From sequence record PQ641135: a stretch of DNA of 42,059 nucleotides, one strand, 5' to 3'. The position numbers and the translations under genes are program-made. This document shows, piece after piece, positions 19,485 through 41,751 of this stretch (the first letter of the stretch is position 1; each line of letters starts with the position of its first letter). The notes beneath the pieces are model-generated. The model worked only from the letters and a program-made list of their open reading frames with translations. It searched no databases and was not told the DNA's origin. Origin of the DNA: Escherichia phage HHU8.

Positions 19485-19661
19485 CTACGCAAGACAGGCG
19501 AACAGAACAGCAGGGATGACAGCCAAGAATACCCACAGGATAAAGCCTTCTGCCCCGGCAGTGTCAACGTGGCTCTTGTTGTACTGGTCGCACGCGGCCA
19601 GACAGACAACAGAGAACAGGGCAAACCATACCACAGCTACAATCCAAAGTAAAACACTCAT
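19485..19661 (-). CDS. small membrane protein with two predicted transmembrane helices
   Basis: 58 aa from the ATG at 19659-19661 (MSVLLWIVAVVWFALFSVV...FILWVFLAVIPAVLFACLA); two hydrophobic stretches separated by a short polar loop. Confidence 0.4.
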   Translation of the reverse strand: MSVLLWIVAVVWFALFSVVCLAACDQYNKSHVDTAGAEGFILWVFLAVIPAVLFACLA

Positions 19662-30187: not shown

Positions 30188-30624
30188 TCGTTATCCCAGT
30201 CCGGTATGTACTGAATCTTCTTCTTCATCTTCACGCTGGCTACAACTTGCAGCACACGGACAGTACCGCCGTGGCATTCAGCCAGACGCTCAGCTTCTTC
30301 ACGCGCATCCAGTTCAGTGATGTGCTCAACCTTCGGCGGCGCATTGCTACCCACGACCAAGCACATATAGCGGCCCCGGTCTTCCGGCTTGCGGCTGACC
30401 AGACTGGTGTTGTCTTCGAGCCACTCGGATTTGTAGTGGCTGATATCCGGCTGCGCATTCAGGCGCTCACCAATCCAGCTCACGATGTAACGAGTCTCCC
30501 CGCTGCGCTCCCACGCTCGGCGGTCAGGGTTAACCCACGCGATGATACCCAGCTTACCCGACCGGGTGCCAGTGCCATCGTCGCCTACGATTTCATCCCC
30601 GACTTTATACTTTGGCTTCACCAT
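30184..30624 (-). CDS. hypothetical protein
   Basis: 146-aa ORF; ATG at 30622-30624 with GGAGGTGGA upstream. Confidence 0.5.
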   Translation of the reverse strand: MVKPKYKVGDEIVGDDGTGTRSGKLGIIAWVNPDRRAWERSGETRYIVSWIGERLNAQPDISHYKSEWLEDNTSLVSRKPEDRGRYMCLVVGSNAPPKVEHITELDAREEAERLAECHGGTVRVLQVVASVKMKKKIQYIPDWDNE

Positions 30625-30821
30625 TTAATCCACCTCCGGCTCTGGCCTACACTCAGGCTCAACTGCATCAGACCCCAGCCCACCAGCATACCGAGCAGCG
30701 TGCCCAGTGTTGAAGTGGCTGACTCACCGACAGTAGGGATAAGCACCAGTGATGCAAGACCCACCCACAATGCTCCCCAAATAATTACCAGAAGCAGGAA
30801 CAACAATATTACTTTGAACAT
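30618..30821 (-). CDS. small membrane protein with two predicted transmembrane helices
   Basis: 67-aa ORF (MFKVILLFLLLVIIWGALWVGLASLVLIP...LGTLLGMLVGWGLMQLSL); ATG at 30819-30821 with GTGAGGTGA upstream; preceded by a hairpin and a copy of the ATGAAGGTGTCTATA motif. Confidence 0.45.
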   Translation of the reverse strand: MFKVILLFLLLVIIWGALWVGLASLVLIPTVGESATSTLGTLLGMLVGWGLMQLSLSVGQSRRWIKW

Positions 30822-36163: not shown

Positions 36164-36556
36164 CTACGCCTCTACTACCCAAAATTGCGCACCATCGTAA
36201 GTCCAAGCAGTGTACTGCCCGGCTTCCATCTCGGCCTCAGTCTTACTGACTAACTTGCCAGCAGGCTTGCCCGGACATGGTGAATCCATGAAGATTGCAT
36301 CATCATCATCAGTCACTACCATGATGCAGTCCTGTTCAAGAGCCTTACAGAACAGCTTAATAGCCTGCCTGATTTCATAGATTCCATCGACAGGAAATAC
36401 CATGCTCAACTCGTACTGATTGTCGAACTTGCCTGTCAGTGTGACCGGAATCACTCCGAACATATCCTGCACCGTTCGCAGTGCCTTGCAATGAAGCGCC
36501 AGATTAACACACTCAGCATTGTTCTGACGATATGCGCTTGCATAGATACGGTACAT
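36164..36556 (-). CDS. hypothetical protein, first early gene downstream of the sigma70-type promoters
   Basis: 130-aa ORF; ATG at 36554-36556 with GGAGAA upstream; lies ~450 nt downstream of the tandem promoters. Confidence 0.5.
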   Translation of the reverse strand: MYRIYASAYRQNNAECVNLALHCKALRTVQDMFGVIPVTLTGKFDNQYELSMVFPVDGIYEIRQAIKLFCKALEQDCIMVVTDDDDAIFMDSPCPGKPAGKLVSKTEAEMEAGQYTAWTYDGAQFWVVEA

Positions 36557-37014
36557 AGTTATTTCTCCAGTTGTTGGCTATTTTCAGGTGGATAGTGAAC
36601 CCATTGTGACGCGCCGTACAGTCTGCACTCGTTGGCATTGATTGGCTTGTCGGATTCACTACCCTGAAAAATCGCCCCGCCCATTTCGCGCTGTGAGTAT
36701 TGTCTTCACTCACTCTCAGGAGTCTTCCAGCAGTCCGGCTCACCGTCACCAGCTTATGCCTACCTACCCGCTATACTCCGCGCCTTATAAGACGTTTGGG
36801 ATTGTGCTGATACTGCGCTGCGTCTATCGCGCTTCTCCGTTCCCTTGCATCGGGCGCTACCCCTACGGCGTTAGCATTGTTGCGATACCGTTGCCTTTCG
36901 GCGATGCCTCACCCAGTTCCAACCTGCGGCGGATACCCAGTGAGCCGTGACACTACGCGGCCAGTTTGCGTTCACTCAGAGCAGGATGCTTTCCATCCTT
37001 TCAACTCGGTGCTG

Positions 37015-37043
37015 ATTACAACACAGTGTATTCAGCTTGTCAA
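37015..37043 (-). promoter_or_regulatory. sigma70-type early promoter P3 (TTGACA - 17 bp - TGTAAT)
   Basis: Minus strand TTGACA (37038-37043), 17-nt spacer, TGTAAT (37015-37020) with TGT upstream; third tandem copy. Confidence 0.6.
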
Positions 37044-37083
37044 CTACTTTTTACTTCTGACTGACTGGCTTACTGCCTGTCAA

Positions 37084-37112
37084 TCTGGTGTGTATTACAG
37101 CATACTCGTTCC
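37084..37112 (-). promoter_or_regulatory. sigma70-type early promoter P2 (TTGACA - 17 bp - TGTAAT)
   Basis: Minus strand TTGACA (37107-37112), 17-nt spacer, TGTAAT (37084-37089) with TGC upstream; same architecture as P1. Confidence 0.6.
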
Positions 37113-37229
37113 ATCCTGTCAACCGATTTAATCAGCGCCCGTTCTGAGATGATTAGACCGTACCAGTTTGCCTGCGTGGGTTTTAACGTCTTTATCCATG
37201 ACTGTTTGGCTTGCTGGTTGACTGGAAGC

Positions 37230-37258
37230 ATTACAGCATAGTGAGTTTGCCTTGTCAA
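37230..37258 (-). promoter_or_regulatory. sigma70-type early promoter P1 (TTGACA - 17 bp - TGTAAT)
   Basis: On the minus strand: TTGACA (plus coordinates 37253-37258), exact 17-nt spacer, TGTAAT (37230-37235), with TGC immediately upstream of the -10 hexamer (extended -10-like). Points toward the early genes. Confidence 0.6.
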
Positions 37259-37330
37259 CACACCAGATTGTTAAAGAGCAGTGTTACCGTTCAATCTTGT
37301 CTACTGGGCTAGTGCCTTTCGACGTGATGA

Positions 37331-37360
37331 ATTACAGCACATAACCAAAACAGTTTGCAA
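37331..37360 (-). promoter_or_regulatory. possible weaker sigma70-type promoter P4 (TTGCAA - 18 bp - TGTAAT)
   Basis: Minus strand TTGCAA (37355-37360), 18-nt spacer, TGTAAT (37331-37336). Confidence 0.35.
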
Positions 37361-37381
37361 GTATTATTTTCAAGAAAAGTG

Positions 37382-37479
37382 ATAAGTTACTGTAATCATT
37401 GAGATTAAAGTTTGATTGGATAATCACAACACTGGATAGAATACCGTTATCAGATAGGTCATAAGTTACTGTAATCATT
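37382..37479. repeat. AT-rich region with a 19-bp perfect direct repeat (ATAAGTTACTGTAATCATT x2)
   Basis: Identical 19-mers at 37382-37400 and 37461-37479 within an AT-rich block between the T-depleted tract and the sigma70 promoters. Confidence 0.5.
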
Positions 37480-37487
37480 AGATAATT

Positions 37488-37508
37488 ATGAAAGTGTCTA
37501 TAGTGATA
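37488..37508 (-). promoter_or_regulatory. promoter-like element with T7-class core (minus strand reads TATCACTATAGACACTTTCAT), upstream of the sigma70 promoters
   Basis: Minus strand carries ...GATACTATATCACTATAG|ACAC...; the core TCACTATAG matches the conserved -8..+1 of T7/SP6/K11-group promoters. It sits just upstream of the tandem early promoters, comparable to the T7 left-end phage promoter. Perfect 21-bp inverted copy of 16678-16698. Confidence 0.4.
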
Positions 37509-37519
37509 TAGTATCGCTA

Positions 37520-37960
37520 GATACGCAGAGCGAGCGCGGCGCAGCCGAAACAAGCGAGCGCGGAACGTCAACGGATGGAATCCGACAGGATGACAGGCGG
37601 CAGACAGTGAACGCAGTAGGACAGTAGACAGAGTGTAACAGCAGGTAGCAGAGCATGACGCGCAGAGCTGGAGGCGCAGACAGTAGACCAGCAGACAGGA
37701 CAGCACCACGCAGCACCACGCCGCGCCACGAAAAGAGACAGATACCCGCCCGACCACAGGCAGCACGCAGCACCGCGCAGCCAGCGCAGAGCGTCCCCAT
37801 AGGACAGCACCGCACAGCACAGCCAGCAGGACAGCACCGCGCCGAGTGATGAAACGCGACACGCACGAGCTATACCGCACGCAGGCAATCCTCTTGACGC
37901 GCCGCGCAGCGCACGCGAGCAATTATCGCGCACGTCGCGAGGCTAAACCGCGCACACGCT
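37520..37960. repeat. thymine-depleted, short-repeat-rich non-coding tract (candidate terminal-repeat / concatemer-junction region)
   Basis: About 440 bp in which the plus strand is nearly devoid of T and is built from degenerate short repeats (AGGACAGCACC at 37697, 37800 and 37828; GACAGTAGAC at 37625 and 37681; many ACGCAG/CAGCAC units). No credible ORF; lies between the last gene (endolysin) and the early promoters. Confidence 0.5.
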
Positions 37961-38072
37961 ATGGGGGCACGCGCGGTCATTTGGGTCGAGGGAGGGGCAC
38001 GTACAAATAGTCAATTTTCAAGCCGGGGTATTGCACCCACGGCCTGTTCATTGCATCAGCTTTTGGATACCC

Positions 38073-38609
38073 CTACAGCGTCGCACAGTAAGCGCTACAG
38101 CGTTTTGCACGGGCAACCAAGGCATCCCTATAGCGAACCACTGTCGGGGCTGTAGAAGCCTTTAGGAACGCAATACGAAGGTCACAGATGGCTGCTGCTG
38201 CGGAGTGAGGTTCCAGACGTTTGGCTGCTGCCACGGTAGCAGGGCCAATAACCCCGTCTTGTGCAACACCGCATACCCGCTGTAGAGCTTTCGCAGCACG
38301 GGAGACGCCGGAGTTGACGCCGTAATCAAACACGGCACATGCAATCGCAGGGTGAAGCTCGTCACCTCTGATGGGGCTGTAGTAGTCCCGGCGATAGATT
38401 GCCTCGGCTTGCTCTTTGGTGAGCTGCTTGATAGGCACACACACAGTGCCGCCAAGCCCAGTAGGGACACCACAAGCTCTACCATCCAGCTTCCCATCAC
38501 GAGCGTCACTAATTCCATGGTTGGTCTCCCCTCCAGTGTCACCGGGCAGCTTGGTGTACCCACCCTCGGCCAGCCCGGTGAACTTCATACAGATTTCAAA
38601 GTTAGTCAT
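38073..38609 (-). CDS. endolysin: glycoside hydrolase family 108-like N-terminal domain plus PG_binding_3-like C-terminal domain
   Basis: 178-aa ORF; N-terminal GLAEGGYTKLPGDTGGETNHGI fits the GH108 lysozyme motif pattern (EGGY...D.GG.T..GI), and the C-terminal GVAQDGVIGPATVAAAKR fits a peptidoglycan-binding domain. No signal peptide, so holin-dependent. ATG at 38607-38609 overlaps the upstream stop (TAATG). Confidence 0.75.
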   Translation of the reverse strand: MTNFEICMKFTGLAEGGYTKLPGDTGGETNHGISDARDGKLDGRACGVPTGLGGTVCVPIKQLTKEQAEAIYRRDYYSPIRGDELHPAIACAVFDYGVNSGVSRAAKALQRVCGVAQDGVIGPATVAAAKRLEPHSAAAAICDLRIAFLKASTAPTVVRYRDALVARAKRCSAYCATL

Positions 38610-38992
38610 TACATCCCCATAATCGTTGTGATAAAGGACTGGAGCGCCGTGAGGTCGCCAGCCTTGACCGCAAGATAGATACCGCTAACGAGTGAAGCGG
38701 TCAGGAGACACCACTTGACGGCGTGAGCCGCGTAAGAGAGTAGCTTACCGATGTGGCTCATAGTCTTTTGAATGTCCTGAATTTGCTCGACGACACGGAG
38801 CTGCTGCTGAATCTCCAGCCACCGGGAGTCGTTCTCCGATAGCTTGGCCAGCATAGCAGCGTCACCTTTTTCCAGCGATGCGATTTGCAGTTCGTGTTTG
38901 TCGAGGCGAGTTTCTACGGATTGCATACGAGCCTCCACAGCGCCCATACGCGAGTGGATGTTAGGAGCTGGCTCCTTCTTTGCTTCCGTCAT
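38609..38992 (-). CDS. membrane protein with N-terminal coiled coil and single C-terminal transmembrane helix; candidate atypical holin
   Basis: 127-aa ORF; ATG at 38990-38992 with GAAGGTGA upstream; heptad-like N-terminal ~90 aa, hydrophobic stretch AVKWCLLTASLVSGIYLAV near the C-terminus. Embedded in the lysis cassette, overlapping the end of the lipoprotein gene. Confidence 0.45.
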   Translation of the reverse strand: MTEAKKEPAPNIHSRMGAVEARMQSVETRLDKHELQIASLEKGDAAMLAKLSENDSRWLEIQQQLRVVEQIQDIQKTMSHIGKLLSYAAHAVKWCLLTASLVSGIYLAVKAGDLTALQSFITTIMGM

Positions 38993-39449
38993 CTTTCACC
39001 TTCTTCTTCCACGGAGATGGTACAAACCACATCACCAGACCTAAGATACAAGTAAGGCCCATGCCAAATGCCCACAGGAGACTGCGTGGGTCGCTCTGAG
39101 AGACAACAATAGTCTTAGCCTGCACGTTTCCATTGGTAATCTGCGAACCCTGCTTAGAAGCGTTTACAGAGCCTCCTGTGACATTCTTCACAGTCGTCGA
39201 ATCACTACCCTGTTTAGCGGTATCCACTTGCGCGTTACCAGATACGTCACCGACCTTCGTTTCGTCGGACTGTTTCGCAGTCAAGCCGATGCCTTGTTTC
39301 GTGTTCTCTGCGCCAACCTGTGCCGTTAGTTCCGGCTTATTGGGAGAGACAGCCGAGGTTACAGCAGACAGTGCGCTTGTTGCGGAGCAGCCCGTCAAAG
39401 TCAAGGACAGTGACAGGACTGCCCCGGCCATAAGCCGAGACAGTTTCAT
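38961..39449 (-). CDS. lipoprotein with C-terminal transmembrane helix; candidate unimolecular spanin
   Basis: 162-aa ORF; N-terminal signal with lipobox (LSLSLTLTG-C-SA), polar Ser/Thr/Gln-rich middle, C-terminal hydrophobic helix (LLWAFGMGLTCILGLVMWFV) then a basic tail. This is the architecture of a u-spanin such as phage T1 gp11. ATG at 39447-39449 with AAGGGG upstream. Confidence 0.5.
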   Translation of the reverse strand: MKLSRLMAGAVLSLSLTLTGCSATSALSAVTSAVSPNKPELTAQVGAENTKQGIGLTAKQSDETKVGDVSGNAQVDTAKQGSDSTTVKNVTGGSVNASKQGSQITNGNVQAKTIVVSQSDPRSLLWAFGMGLTCILGLVMWFVPSPWKKKVKDDGSKEGASS

Positions 39450-39458
39450 ATTGACCCC

Positions 39459-39644
39459 TTAGTTGGTCAGTGCAGTGAGGGCGTTCGACACGCGGGTAAC
39501 AAAGGTCTGGTAGTAAGCCACCAGCGCAGTGTTGGTCGTGTCGAAGTAACCGTCCTCAACCCAAACGTTCAGATACTTGGCCGCCATATTACAGGCTGCC
39601 ACGAACTCCGCACGTTCAGCAGCGGTAGAGTCAACAAGTGCCAT
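39459..39644 (-). CDS. hypothetical protein
   Basis: 61-aa ORF; ATG at 39642-39644 with AAGGAGA upstream; no hydrophobic segment. Confidence 0.4.
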   Translation of the reverse strand: MALVDSTAAERAEFVAACNMAAKYLNVWVEDGYFDTTNTALVAYYQTFVTRVSNALTALTN

Positions 39645-39826
39645 AAAGATTCTCCTTAAGAGAGTGTGATGCCAGTGATTGCACCAGCGGAAATAGCGAA
39701 GGTCGCGGTGTCGGTGTACGTGCCAGTGACCGGGATGGTCAGTGCATCACCGTTATCCACCATAGCCACAGTAGCGCCGTCCTCCAGCAGAGCGGAACCT
39801 TCCGGCGTACCCGCGTAACCAGCAGC

Positions 39827-39991
39827 CTAAAGTACCACCACCAGATTTGTGATGGCAGTTTCAATGTCAGCAGCCTGAGCTGCCGTCACTGTACGGGTAC
39901 CATTGATGAAGCGTTGAGTCACGTTAGCTGCGATACCACAGCGATAACCAAGCTCGTAACGCTGAGCATCAGTGATGGTGGTGATGGACAT
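39827..39991 (-). CDS. hypothetical small protein; reading frame continues 57 codons past its TAG stop
   Basis: 54 aa from the ATG at 39989-39991 (GGAGAA upstream; ATG overlaps the terminase stop as TAATG). Its TAG at 39827-39829 is followed in frame by an open stretch down to TAA at 39656-39658. Confidence 0.35.
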   Translation of the reverse strand: MSITTITDAQRYELGYRCGIAANVTQRFINGTRTVTAAQAADIETAITNLVVVL

Positions 39992-41751
39992 TATTTGATT
40001 CTCCGTCGCGTGCCGCGCACAGGTTTGTGGCTGCGCCACTTCGAGTCGTCGTAACCCATCGGGTTGGCAAGGAACTCTCGTGCAGCAGCAGTCTCACGCT
40101 TGGCGGCTTCTTCATGTTCGTCCTGCTGTAGCACCTCAGCGTGCAGGTACACGGCAGCAGACAGGGTTTCAATGCGGTCGTCGTGGGGGATGGATTGACG
40201 GTCTTGTGTCAGGTTCTGGAGCTGCCAGAACAGACTGAACTCACGACCACCGTTATTCATGCCCCGGCACAGCCGCAGGTCTTCTTCAACAACACACCAA
40301 TGCACAACGACACGGTGGCGCTGCATGATTGGGCCGAGGCGGTTGATGATACGCACCTCTTTCTGACCGGACGAGTACACGCCATCACAGCCAATGGTCA
40401 AGCTCTGACGCTTAACCTCACCTCGGTACATGTTGGTCACGGTGCCGTGGCCCATGTTATCCTCAATGACCAGTCGCTTAACCCCGGTTTCAGCAAGCCA
40501 CTCTACCGCCGCCTTGATGTTTTCCTCCGTCTGACCGCCGTGGTAGACGTGCATACCGATGACGTGGATAAACGGGCCGACAGAAGCGGTGGCAATGATA
40601 ACTGATTCGTCCGACCCACCACCAGCAGGGTCAAGAAACGCCGAGGTATTTTCGAATGGTACATAAGTGTCCGAGAAATCAGCAGCCAAGAATAGCTGAG
40701 CGCGAGCCAGTGGGAAATCCAATGGCAGCTCGGCGGCATGGCGCGGGTGGTTCGACCAATGCAGAACCTCCGGCGCAGACTGCGTAGAGCCGTGGAAGAA
40801 GATTAAGTCTTTGAGATGTAACGTCTGTTTGAGCGCATCCGACAGCGACGTGTCCAGCATGAACTGCAACTGGAAGCCTGCCTGCTGGTAGTCTCGTTCG
40901 TTCTGCAACTGCTTCTCTTCGGAGTAGCGTTGCGGGTCAGTCTGTGCGCCACGGTTCCCAAGGATACCGTACCCAGTACGCAGTTCAGGGTGGCCATCCA
41001 TCTTCTGCTTAATCCACGGGGCCAGACAGCCGCCGTAGCGTTCTTCTTCCTCAACCGTTGGGAAACGACCGGGCCAGATGCGAACGTCGAAGCCACGCTG
41101 CGGGAGCGTGTTGTAGATGGAGTCCTGAGTCTGCGGTGTACCAAGGTACAGAATCTCTGCACCATCATTGGCGATAGCCGCGAACTCTTTGGTCAGAGTG
41201 TTGATACGGGCGCGGTTGGCAGGAGAGCTACCGTTACTGGTAGTCTCCACGTCATCGGCAATCAACAGCGATACGTGGTTCCCCTGCAACTGGCCGAAGA
41301 TACCAACTGCTTTGACAGAGGGCTGTTTGTCAGGAATACGAAATGCGTGGTGTACGTCGAAACCGTCCGTATAGGAGGTACGTGCGCCAGCGCGAGTTTC
41401 AGGGCGCAGCCATTCCAGTCTGTCCCATTGCATAATGGCAGACACGATGGCGTGCGAGAGCGTACCCGCATAGTCGTCAGAACCAGATACCAGCAGCACA
41501 GTGGCGTTAGGCATCTGGATGAACTCATACAGAGCACGGGCAATGCCGATGGTGGACTTAGCCTCACCGCGCTGAGCCATGACGCACTTGTTCTTTAGCG
41601 TCCGGTCGGCCATGTAGCGGCCAATATCGAGCTGCATTTCAGTGAGGTCAAAGCCCAGCCATGCGAAGTAGTCATGCAGGAACAGCGGGAAGTTGTTCTC
41701 GTAGTGGGCGCGAACAATTCCTGCCATCACCATGCGGCGTTGTAAATCCAT
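39991..41751 (-). CDS. terminase large subunit (T7 gp19-like)
   Basis: 586-aa ORF, the same length as T7 gp19; N-terminal region resembles T7-group terminases; follows the small-terminase gene with a TAATG overlap. Confidence 0.85.
   Translation of the reverse strand: MDLQRRMVMAGIVRAHYENNFPLFLHDYFAWLGFDLTEMQLDIGRYMADRTLKNKCVMAQRGEAKSTIGIARALYEFIQMPNATVLLVSGSDDYAGTLSHAIVSAIMQWDRLEWLRPETRAGARTSYTDGFDVHHAFRIPDKQPSVKAVGIFGQLQGNHVSLLIADDVETTSNGSSPANRARINTLTKEFAAIANDGAEILYLGTPQTQDSIYNTLPQRGFDVRIWPGRFPTVEEEERYGGCLAPWIKQKMDGHPELRTGYGILGNRGAQTDPQRYSEEKQLQNERDYQQAGFQLQFMLDTSLSDALKQTLHLKDLIFFHGSTQSAPEVLHWSNHPRHAAELPLDFPLARAQLFLAADFSDTYVPFENTSAFLDPAGGGSDESVIIATASVGPFIHVIGMHVYHGGQTEENIKAAVEWLAETGVKRLVIEDNMGHGTVTNMYRGEVKRQSLTIGCDGVYSSGQKEVRIINRLGPIMQRHRVVVHWCVVEEDLRLCRGMNNGGREFSLFWQLQNLTQDRQSIPHDDRIETLSAAVYLHAEVLQQDEHEEAAKRETAAAREFLANPMGYDDSKWRSHKPVRGTRRRIK

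Follow-up and report, generated by a model that had tools for sequence, protein, structure and literature searches.

The 42,059-nucleotide (nt) stretch analysed here over its full length, and called the window below, comes from Escherichia phage HHU8 (record PQ641135). At 38073-39449 it carries a compact cassette of three minus-strand genes: one for a 162-amino-acid (aa) lipoprotein that is very probably a unimolecular spanin (u-spanin) of the phage T1 gp11 family (38961-39449, assigned by homology and PHROG), one for a 127-aa membrane protein of family phrog_35530 (38609-38992, assigned by PHROG, AlphaFold and synteny) and one for a 178-aa GH108 endolysin that has no signal sequence (38073-38609, assigned by Pfam and PDB matches). 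The 127-aa protein is the main subject of this report. A prediction made earlier from the letters of this sequence (the original prediction) called it an atypical holin candidate, and among the readings considered below this is the best available one, with holin as a putative function.

All long open reading frames (ORFs) of the window lie on the minus strand, and the ORFs, the coordinates and the 32-nt gene overlap of the original prediction were re-derived exactly. This overlap (38961-38992) joins the lipoprotein gene to the 127-aa gene, which has its ATG at 38992 while the lipoprotein stop codon is at 38961-38963; the 127-aa stop and the endolysin start share a single base, reading ATGTAATG. 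Because the three genes overlap or abut, they are expected to be co-translated, and the 127-aa gene is, as judged from its arrangement, translationally coupled to the endolysin gene. Comparable overlaps between the spanin gene and the next gene are present in phage LIMEzero (41 nt) and in the related loci L009 (8 nt), L010 (83 nt) and L023 (32 nt). Conservation in 19-21 phage records indicates that the cassette ORFs are real genes rather than chance ORFs. Neither a convincing sigma-70 promoter nor an intrinsic terminator turned up within the cassette in consensus scans, a result compatible with its co-transcription with the terminase genes, and no Rfam match was found in 36400-40100.

Across 19 complete Bonnellvirus genomes (family Autographiviridae), nucleotide identity to the 1.6-kb region containing the cassette is 86-96%; among them are those of Cronobacter phage RZ4, Escherichia phages usur, forsur and J8-65, and Kosakonia virus Kc261. 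By this similarity, the window is an almost complete Bonnellvirus genome of approximately 42 kb that is circularly permuted and reverse-complemented. The cassette has the same gene order in J8-65, LF82-23, mellemsur and LIMEzero. In J8-65 the endolysin gene is the last gene and directly precedes the terminal repeat, which puts the cassette beyond the terminase genes, at the genome's right end. Lysis genes at the right end after the terminase are the layout of phiKMV-type phages, and the window genome shares it.

The AlphaFold model of the 127-aa protein (mean predicted local distance difference test [pLDDT] score 85) consists of one long helix (residues 12-110) followed by a short helix (residues 114-126). 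The only hydrophobic segment detected by hydropathy, AVKWCLLTASLVSGIYLAV, is at residues 91-109 (38666-38722, minus strand); it is moderately hydrophobic and rich in Ser, Thr and Gly. Model and hydropathy thus bear out a long N-terminal coiled coil with a single C-terminal helix, as had been predicted. The flanks of this transmembrane domain (TMD) carry charges of +2 (N side) and 0 (C side). Most members of the family have a basic N flank (+2 or +3) and a neutral or acidic C flank, a distribution that fits an N-in/C-out orientation, so the single-helix N-in topology of the original prediction is favoured, itself as a prediction. The last 18 residues, KAGDLTALQSFITTIMGM, have a net charge of 0.

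The 127-aa protein matches phrog_35530, a family with no assigned function, at 7e-55. Its homologues occur in 21 phage records (19 Bonnellvirus and two LIMEzero), in all of which they are labelled "hypothetical"; the LIMEzero ORF54 product is 52% identical. A large protein database contained close relatives only. A profile search of 1.84 billion representatives recovered full-length relatives at 22-30% identity (P0035-39, P0041 and P0046) from uncultured T7-like phages, and these were confirmed both by reciprocal tblastn to LIMEzero and Bonnellvirus and by phrog_35530 matches of 1e-9 to 1e-17. In all members the N-terminal coiled coil is followed by a TMD, then by an invariant Gly-Asp turn and finally by a short helix at the C-terminus. 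Among cultured phages the family is present in Bonnellvirus and LIMEzero only. No loci related to P0037 and P0035 were found in IMG/VR, and the literature searched contains no description of phrog_35530 or the 127-aa family. A BFVD fold search with the AlphaFold model returned nothing at E<=0.001, one long helix being an uninformative query; a PDB sequence-profile search returned generic coiled coils only, and NCBIfam returned only coiled-coil noise of the SMC/Rad50 type.

The 127-aa gene has a possible internal start, GGAGG-CTCGT-ATG (38924-38936, minus strand), that is conserved at the DNA level; initiation at this codon (Met23) would give a 105-aa product. Met1 is preceded by AAGGTGA and Met23 by GGAGG-CTCGT, and both arrangements are kept in six Bonnellvirus sequences and LIMEzero while nearby synonymous sites vary (a small sample). 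Met23 is not present in the distant relatives. The start annotated in RefSeq for both J8-65 (L001 4528-4845) and LIMEzero (L005 3552-3872) is Met23, giving products of 105-106 aa, and a homologue deposited as Enterobacter kobei (P0026) has a length of 105 aa, consistent with the same start. Because residues 9-22 are conserved in distant relatives of 25% identity, the long frame from Met1 is a true coding frame, and the 105-aa RefSeq annotations are therefore truncated at the N-terminus, with a loss of approximately 22 residues. Two in-frame products of 127 and 105 aa could possibly tune timing, which we note as a lead.

The principal evidence for a holin role is synteny. In every lineage examined, the gene of the 127-aa family is immediately upstream of, and often overlaps, the gene for an endolysin that has no N-terminal hydrophobic segment. 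This endolysin is a GH108 protein in three lineages (the window, LIMEzero and L023) and a T4-type lysozyme (PF00959) in six (L009, L010, L011-14, L015, L016 and L018) and probably in L008. That the linkage is kept with two unrelated enzyme families suggests that the partner is a cytoplasmic endolysin in general. As in the window, the 127-aa family gene of L009, L010 and L023 is preceded and overlapped by a gene for a u-spanin of the gp11 type. The cassettes of the distant family members contain no other ORF with a TMD, and in L011, a 10-kb contig, the late-region stretch from the tail genes to beyond the endolysin encodes no other TMD protein.

Related cassettes show what usually occupies this position. 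The holin slot between u-spanin and endolysin contains a P21/HP1-type holin (PF04971/PF16080) in PPWS2, the nearest outgroup with a u-spanin, and in KP34-like phages, where the gene has been described as a pinholin paired with a signal-anchor-release (SAR) endolysin. The simplest reading is that pinholin and SAR endolysin have been replaced non-orthologously by the 127-aa protein and a canonical endolysin. According to Kongari et al. (PMC6139136), J8-65 and LIMEzero are the only phages with a T1-family u-spanin that do not have the pinholin/SAR endolysin pair; it follows that these phages need a holin forming large holes. The u-spanin and the 127-aa family are the only membrane proteins common to Bonnellvirus and LIMEzero.

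The 178-aa protein matches Pfam GH108 (PF05838) with E=6.9e-22 (78.2 bits against a cut-off of 21.2), phrog_315 endolysins at 8e-41 and the GH108-fold PDB structures 7dnp (8e-24) and 2ikb (2e-16), and it contains the EGGY motif. PG_binding_3 in its C-terminal domain scores 22.9 bits, just under the gathering score of 24.6, and the NCBIfam model for holin-associated N-acetylmuramidase is below its cut-off (61 against 240 bits). No hydrophobic window of at least 1.5 was found anywhere in the protein, so no export signal is seen. These results agree with the predicted GH108/PG_binding_3-type endolysin without a signal sequence, with the second domain at near-threshold level, and by these matches the protein is an ordinary GH108 canonical endolysin. 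Inside the endolysin gene, a 133-aa ORF in the +1 frame (38162-38563, minus strand) contains a hydrophobic segment (2.35) and is open in the window, J8-65, LF82-23 and mellemsur. We rejected this ORF as a hidden holin, since the corresponding LIMEzero frame is interrupted and lacks hydrophobicity; most likely the ORF arises as a by-product of the conserved endolysin frame in a genome of 55% GC content.

The 162-aa protein begins with MKLSRLMAGAVLSLSLTLTG|CS, a lipoprotein signal peptide (39387-39449, minus strand) with an L-T-G-C lipobox that satisfies a PROSITE-type rule and places the lipidated residue at Cys21. The Ser at position +2 predicts sorting to the outer membrane. All 21 aligned relatives pass the same rule, with S or A at +2, and L18 and C21 are invariant in the alignment (A6); lipobox, non-Asp +2 residue, C-terminal helix and basic tail are kept in all 22 aligned u-spanins. 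The transmembrane helix, RSLLWAFGMGLTCILGLVMWFV (39021-39086, minus strand), was identified by hydropathy (peak 2.01, residues 125-143) and in the AlphaFold model (residues 121-142), and covers approximately residues 122-143; it is followed by the tail PSPWKKKVK with five K/R residues. The predicted combination of lipobox and C-terminal helix is therefore present. BLASTP against T1 gp11 gives 36% identity (E=4e-16), with the lipobox, a TAQVGAENTKQ motif and the C-terminal helix in register, and phrog_1804 is matched by both the 162-aa protein (5e-37) and gp11 (1e-44).

Homology thus gives the comparison with T1 gp11 firmer ground than the topology from which it was first drawn, and we assign the 162-aa protein to the T1 gp11 family of u-spanins with high confidence. 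The assignment is correct but not new, as the protein is a further orthologue of a catalogued u-spanin: Table 5 of Kongari et al. 2018 places the orthologues from J8-65 (163 aa) and LIMEzero (188 aa) among the T1-family u-spanins, and the authors describe them as "unusually long" and as having "the least sequence similarity" (PMC6139136). In that study, disruption of the outer membrane, seen as complementation of lambda Rz/Rz1 mutants, was shown for T1 gp11 only. With tblastn, homologues were found in 638 phage records, many of them T1-like or KP34-like and labelled "U-spanin"; the other database names, "Rz-like spanin" and "Rz1A", are loose labels, and the protein also appears as "hypothetical". 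The original prediction had excluded an Rz/Rz1 pair. This was upheld, and we likewise rejected the 127-aa protein as an i-spanin, as it has neither an N-terminal TMD nor an embedded ORF with a lipobox.

The periplasmic domain of the u-spanin contains Gly/Ser/Lys-rich repeats of approximately 21 residues with the pattern DVSGNAxVxxAKQG (39130-39290, residues ~54-107; alignment A1). Copy number exceeds that of the window by one in LIMEzero and is lower in PPWS2 and T1; the extra copies account for the approximately 30 residues by which the window protein is longer than gp11. The length of the protein may be adjusted by gain and loss of repeats. A gp11-type u-spanin of 167 aa that had been missed by the gene caller was found at L010 1170-1673, with a lipobox LWGC, the TAQVG motif, a C-terminal TMD and an 83-nt overlap with the next gene, a case that agrees with the remark of Kongari et al. 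that spanin genes are often missed in annotation (PMC6139136). Two proteins deposited as Enterobacter kobei NOX27_24725 and NOX27_24730 (P0160 and P0026) are 95-99% identical to the window u-spanin and holin candidate. They are encoded on a 42.7-kb contig, which points to a complete phage genome of the window type inside a bacterial assembly.

A hydropathy scan of all window ORFs for small membrane proteins bears on the earlier statement that the 127-aa protein is the only membrane protein available to act as a holin. This is true within the cassette, but the genome has two more small two-TMD ORFs elsewhere. A 67-aa protein with two transmembrane helices is encoded in the early region (30618-30821, minus strand) and is of interest as a rival holin or possible XhlB-like partner; it occurs in 19 of 19 Bonnellvirus records at 41-98% identity and has two strong TMDs and a basic C-terminus. 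A 58-aa protein with two transmembrane helices is encoded in the DNA-metabolism region (19485-19661, minus strand) and is an unlikely holin. It is present in 13 of the 19 records and absent from the other six (J8-65, Lidtsur, LF82-23 and smaasur among others), and for this absence we rejected it. Neither the 67-aa nor the 58-aa protein matched a holin family or has a counterpart in LIMEzero. A scan of the LIMEzero coding strand found only ORF11 (with a signal peptide), the 53-aa one-helix ORF35, the u-spanin and ORF54.

The 127-aa family has a possible link to XhlA and to gp24.1 of phage SPP1. These are proteins with a C-terminal transmembrane helix, termed "components of holin", that act with the two-helix proteins XhlB and gp26, neither component being harmful alone (PMC6316719). 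SPP1 gene 24.1 has an in-frame dual start (PMC6316719, PMC5589764), and gene 26 is transcribed early (PMC6316719). Against the 127-aa protein, the Pfam XhlA model (PF10779) gives 18.9 bits (E=0.0017), below the gathering threshold of 34.7; sub-threshold matches to this model were obtained for seven of 10 family members, and phrog_1193, an XhlA-type "hemolysin" family, is weakly matched by the window protein and P0046. We compared an XhlA profile, an 18-sequence alignment built from homologues of SPP1 gp24.1, with an alignment of the 127-aa family (A4). The two aligned over 38 columns, all of them in the coiled coil, with an hhalign probability of 91.6% (score 41) and a shared motif, (V/L)E-x-R-x-D-x-H-x-x-Q-I, that includes a conserved His. 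Reversed alignments scored 22-23, and 60 shuffles of 7-column blocks scored 17±4 with a maximum of 32.5. The similarity between the two families is thus above the controls but local, and we consider homology plausible rather than established. No two-TMD ORF was found in the cassette or in the related contigs, nor on the whole LIMEzero coding strand; by analogy, the 127-aa protein would be either self-sufficient or served by a partner encoded elsewhere.

On balance we favour the reading of the 127-aa protein as the holin or its essential core, though with considerable room for error, because it fills the holin slot of related u-spanin cassettes, is coupled to the endolysin and keeps a constant position upstream of signal-less endolysins. 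Several points weigh against this reading. No holin model of Pfam, PHROG or NCBIfam reached threshold for the protein, and the highly charged C-terminal tail typical of holins is not present. The XhlA match covers 38 coiled-coil columns only, and coiled coils are prone to spurious profile matches. XhlA and gp24.1, the closest analogues, need a two-TMD partner and none is adjacent in the window, while the 67-aa two-TMD protein, which every Bonnellvirus genome encodes, could itself be the holin or act as a partner. The metagenomic contexts are mostly short contigs, and those genomes may encode holins elsewhere; holin activity for every member of phrog_35530 is a prediction. The u-spanin contributes a further point, on the cassette as a whole: a periplasmic domain rich in beta strands is the reported character of the T1 gp11 family (PMC6139136), and the AlphaFold monomer, built with 22 sequences, is of low confidence (pLDDT 51) and has no strands in residues 31-120. 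For the J8-65 u-spanin, the supplement of Kongari et al. gives 102 periplasmic residues, of which 15 and 35 (14.7% and 34.3%) fall in two predicted secondary-structure classes that appear to be helix and strand, respectively.

The 67-aa protein is central to two of the alternatives. The 127-aa protein might be an XhlA-like component that is inactive alone, with the lethal lesion formed only together with the 67-aa two-helix protein. SPP1 provides the parallel, as its two-TMD holin is made early, from gene 26, and a late XhlA-like protein sets the time of lysis; XhlA/XhlB and gp24.1/gp26 are lethal only in combination (PMC6316719), and the XhlA-like architecture, the local profile match, the two strong TMDs and basic C-terminus of the 67-aa protein and its presence throughout Bonnellvirus are all as this would predict. 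LIMEzero, however, has the 127-aa homologue and neither a two-TMD protein on its coding strand nor a 67-aa homologue, and the distant family members have no two-TMD ORF nearby. The 67-aa protein also matches no holin family, and falls to 41-52% identity among phages with lysis genes that are 86-96% identical at the nucleotide level, a pattern typical of accessory early genes; we therefore consider the two-component explanation unlikely. If the 127-aa protein were instead a lysis accessory, such as an antiholin or timer or a protein that regulates the endolysin or tethers it to the membrane, the true holin would be another protein: that of 67 aa in Bonnellvirus, the 53-aa ORF35 product in LIMEzero, or one not yet recognised. 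Each genome does have other small TMD proteins, tight coupling to the endolysin is equally expected of a regulator, and the classical holin hallmarks of a charged C-terminal tail and a holin family match are not present. But these alternative holins are non-homologous between Bonnellvirus and LIMEzero, whereas very distant phages share the 127-aa family in a conserved gene order, and it would be unusual for an accessory to be more widely conserved than the essential holin. The stretch of L011 without a second TMD protein also argues against an accessory role, which we judge improbable. A function outside lysis, for example in virion assembly or as a membrane-associated replication factor, would make the adjacency to the endolysin accidental. 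No database assigns a function to the protein, and coiled-coil proteins give many non-specific matches; nevertheless, in about ten diverged lineages the gene lies next to an endolysin gene from one or the other of two unrelated families, with stop/start overlap, the TMD and the Gly-Asp turn are conserved, and the gene is syntenic with the holin slot of related cassettes. This explanation appears very unlikely.

With the 127-aa protein as the holin, the cassette would be a late lysis module at the right end of a phiKMV-type Bonnellvirus genome, and we think it reasonably probable that it carries out a three-step lysis with an unusual first component. The 127-aa protein would insert in the inner membrane with its coiled coil of approximately 90 residues in the cytoplasm and approximately 18 residues outside, accumulate harmlessly and oligomerise through the coiled coil. 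At a critical concentration or set time, its Ser/Thr/Gly-rich helix would form an oligomeric lesion, through which the folded, signal-less GH108 endolysin, presumably of muramidase-type activity, could escape and degrade the peptidoglycan. The u-spanin, by comparison with T1 gp11, would meanwhile link the two membranes, with lipidated Cys21 in the outer and the C-terminal helix in the inner one; loss of the wall would free it to fuse or disrupt both membranes, as proposed for gp11 (PMC6139136; PMC9636201). The 105-aa product from the internal start, which has a strong Shine-Dalgarno sequence, could tune the timing of lysis.

Upstream of the cassette, a 61-aa ORF (39459-39644, minus strand) encodes a conserved soluble protein with no transmembrane segment and weak similarity to phrog_9732. 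Positional counterparts are present in LIMEzero, PPWS2 and metagenomic contigs, with low sequence conservation; lacking a TMD and informative homology, it was rejected as a lysis protein. The four genes named in the original prediction follow the terminase in the order given, but a disrupted gene directly after the terminase (39656-39991, minus strand) had been skipped. This gene is homologous to RZ4 ORF50 and forsur_23 (226 aa) and has an in-frame amber codon (GAG to TAG at 39827-39829) and an in-frame deletion of approximately 320 nt between two repeated ATVAMVDNGDAL modules, leaving pieces of 54 aa and 55 aa. The disruption may reflect a pseudogene, natural amber variation or an error in the assembly.

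On the other side of the cassette, a 30-nt element occurs three times at 37015-37259 (read on the minus strand) with spacings of 79 and 136 nt and the coding-strand sequence GTTGACA-N17-TGTAAT. These elements look like a cluster of early promoters for host RNA polymerase, of which LIMEzero has a comparable annotated set of three; because the -10 hexamer has a G at position 2, they escaped the consensus scan. At 37640-37850 there are short, degenerate, GC-rich direct repeats resembling CAGCACCACGC, in a 1.4-kb stretch past the endolysin that is free of ORFs, at the place corresponding to the terminal repeat of J8-65. The long apparent ORFs past the endolysin (e.g. 37332-37922) are probably not genes.

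The type of cassette and its u-spanin are known and the endolysin is ordinary; what is new, we believe with moderate confidence, is that the holin gap is filled by a conserved, uncharacterised family. In phages of the Bonnellvirus/LIMEzero type the endolysin is cytoplasmic and no holin has been recognised; Kongari et al. 2018 noted this exception and left it standing, and a candidate can now be named for it. A more tentative suggestion, to which we give somewhat less than an even chance, is that phrog_35530 represents a new class of holin in T7-like phages of Gram-negative hosts: a stand-alone, tail-anchored type in which the coiled coil bundles a single weakly hydrophobic helix, linked to XhlA without an XhlB-type partner, and in which the 127- and 105-aa products might set timing. 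If the holin reading is true, the architecture is one not described for Gram-negative phages and is tied to the XhlA-type proteins, which are themselves poorly understood. Annotation would also be corrected in approximately 20 phage genomes in which the protein is "hypothetical", often at 105 aa, and the spanin is mislabelled Rz/Rz1A. Bonnellviruses have been isolated against E. coli LF82, Enterobacter, Cronobacter and Pantoea, which makes the timing of their lysis of practical interest.

Compared with known lysis systems, the window cassette is most similar to those of KP34-like phages and PPWS2, in which u-spanin, holin-slot gene and endolysin also follow the terminase in this order, the u-spanin is approximately 50% identical and the spanin gene overlaps the next gene; the holin-slot gene and endolysin, in contrast, are non-homologous (phrog_35530 and a canonical GH108 enzyme in the window). 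The gene order in T1 is holin-endolysin-spanin rather than spanin-holin-endolysin, and all other T1-family u-spanins are accompanied by a pinholin and a SAR endolysin (PMC6139136), whereas that of the window is paired with a signal-less endolysin and has no pinholin beside it. Like the class III holins (T4 T and T5-type; PMC9636201), the 127-aa protein has one TMD, a predicted N-in/C-out orientation and a cytoplasmic, signal-less endolysin to serve. In class III holins the N-terminal part in the cytoplasm is short and the large domain is periplasmic (PMC9636201), while the 127-aa protein has the opposite distribution, with approximately 18 periplasmic residues, and no sequence similarity to this class was found in Pfam or PHROG. 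The resemblance to XhlA and gp24.1 (PF10779; phrog_689/1193) is closer: these are also small proteins encoded beside the endolysin, in which an N-terminal coiled coil lies in the cytoplasm and one TMD follows at the C-terminus, and the possible in-frame dual start of the 127-aa gene recalls gp24.1/24.1*. The 127-aa protein differs from XhlA in approximately 35 extra helical residues between the shared motif and the TMD, and its family in a conserved Gly-Asp turn and C-terminal helix. Finally, XhlA and gp24.1 belong to phages of Bacillus, whereas the 127-aa family serves phages of Gram-negative hosts and has no XhlB/gp26-type partner adjacent to it.

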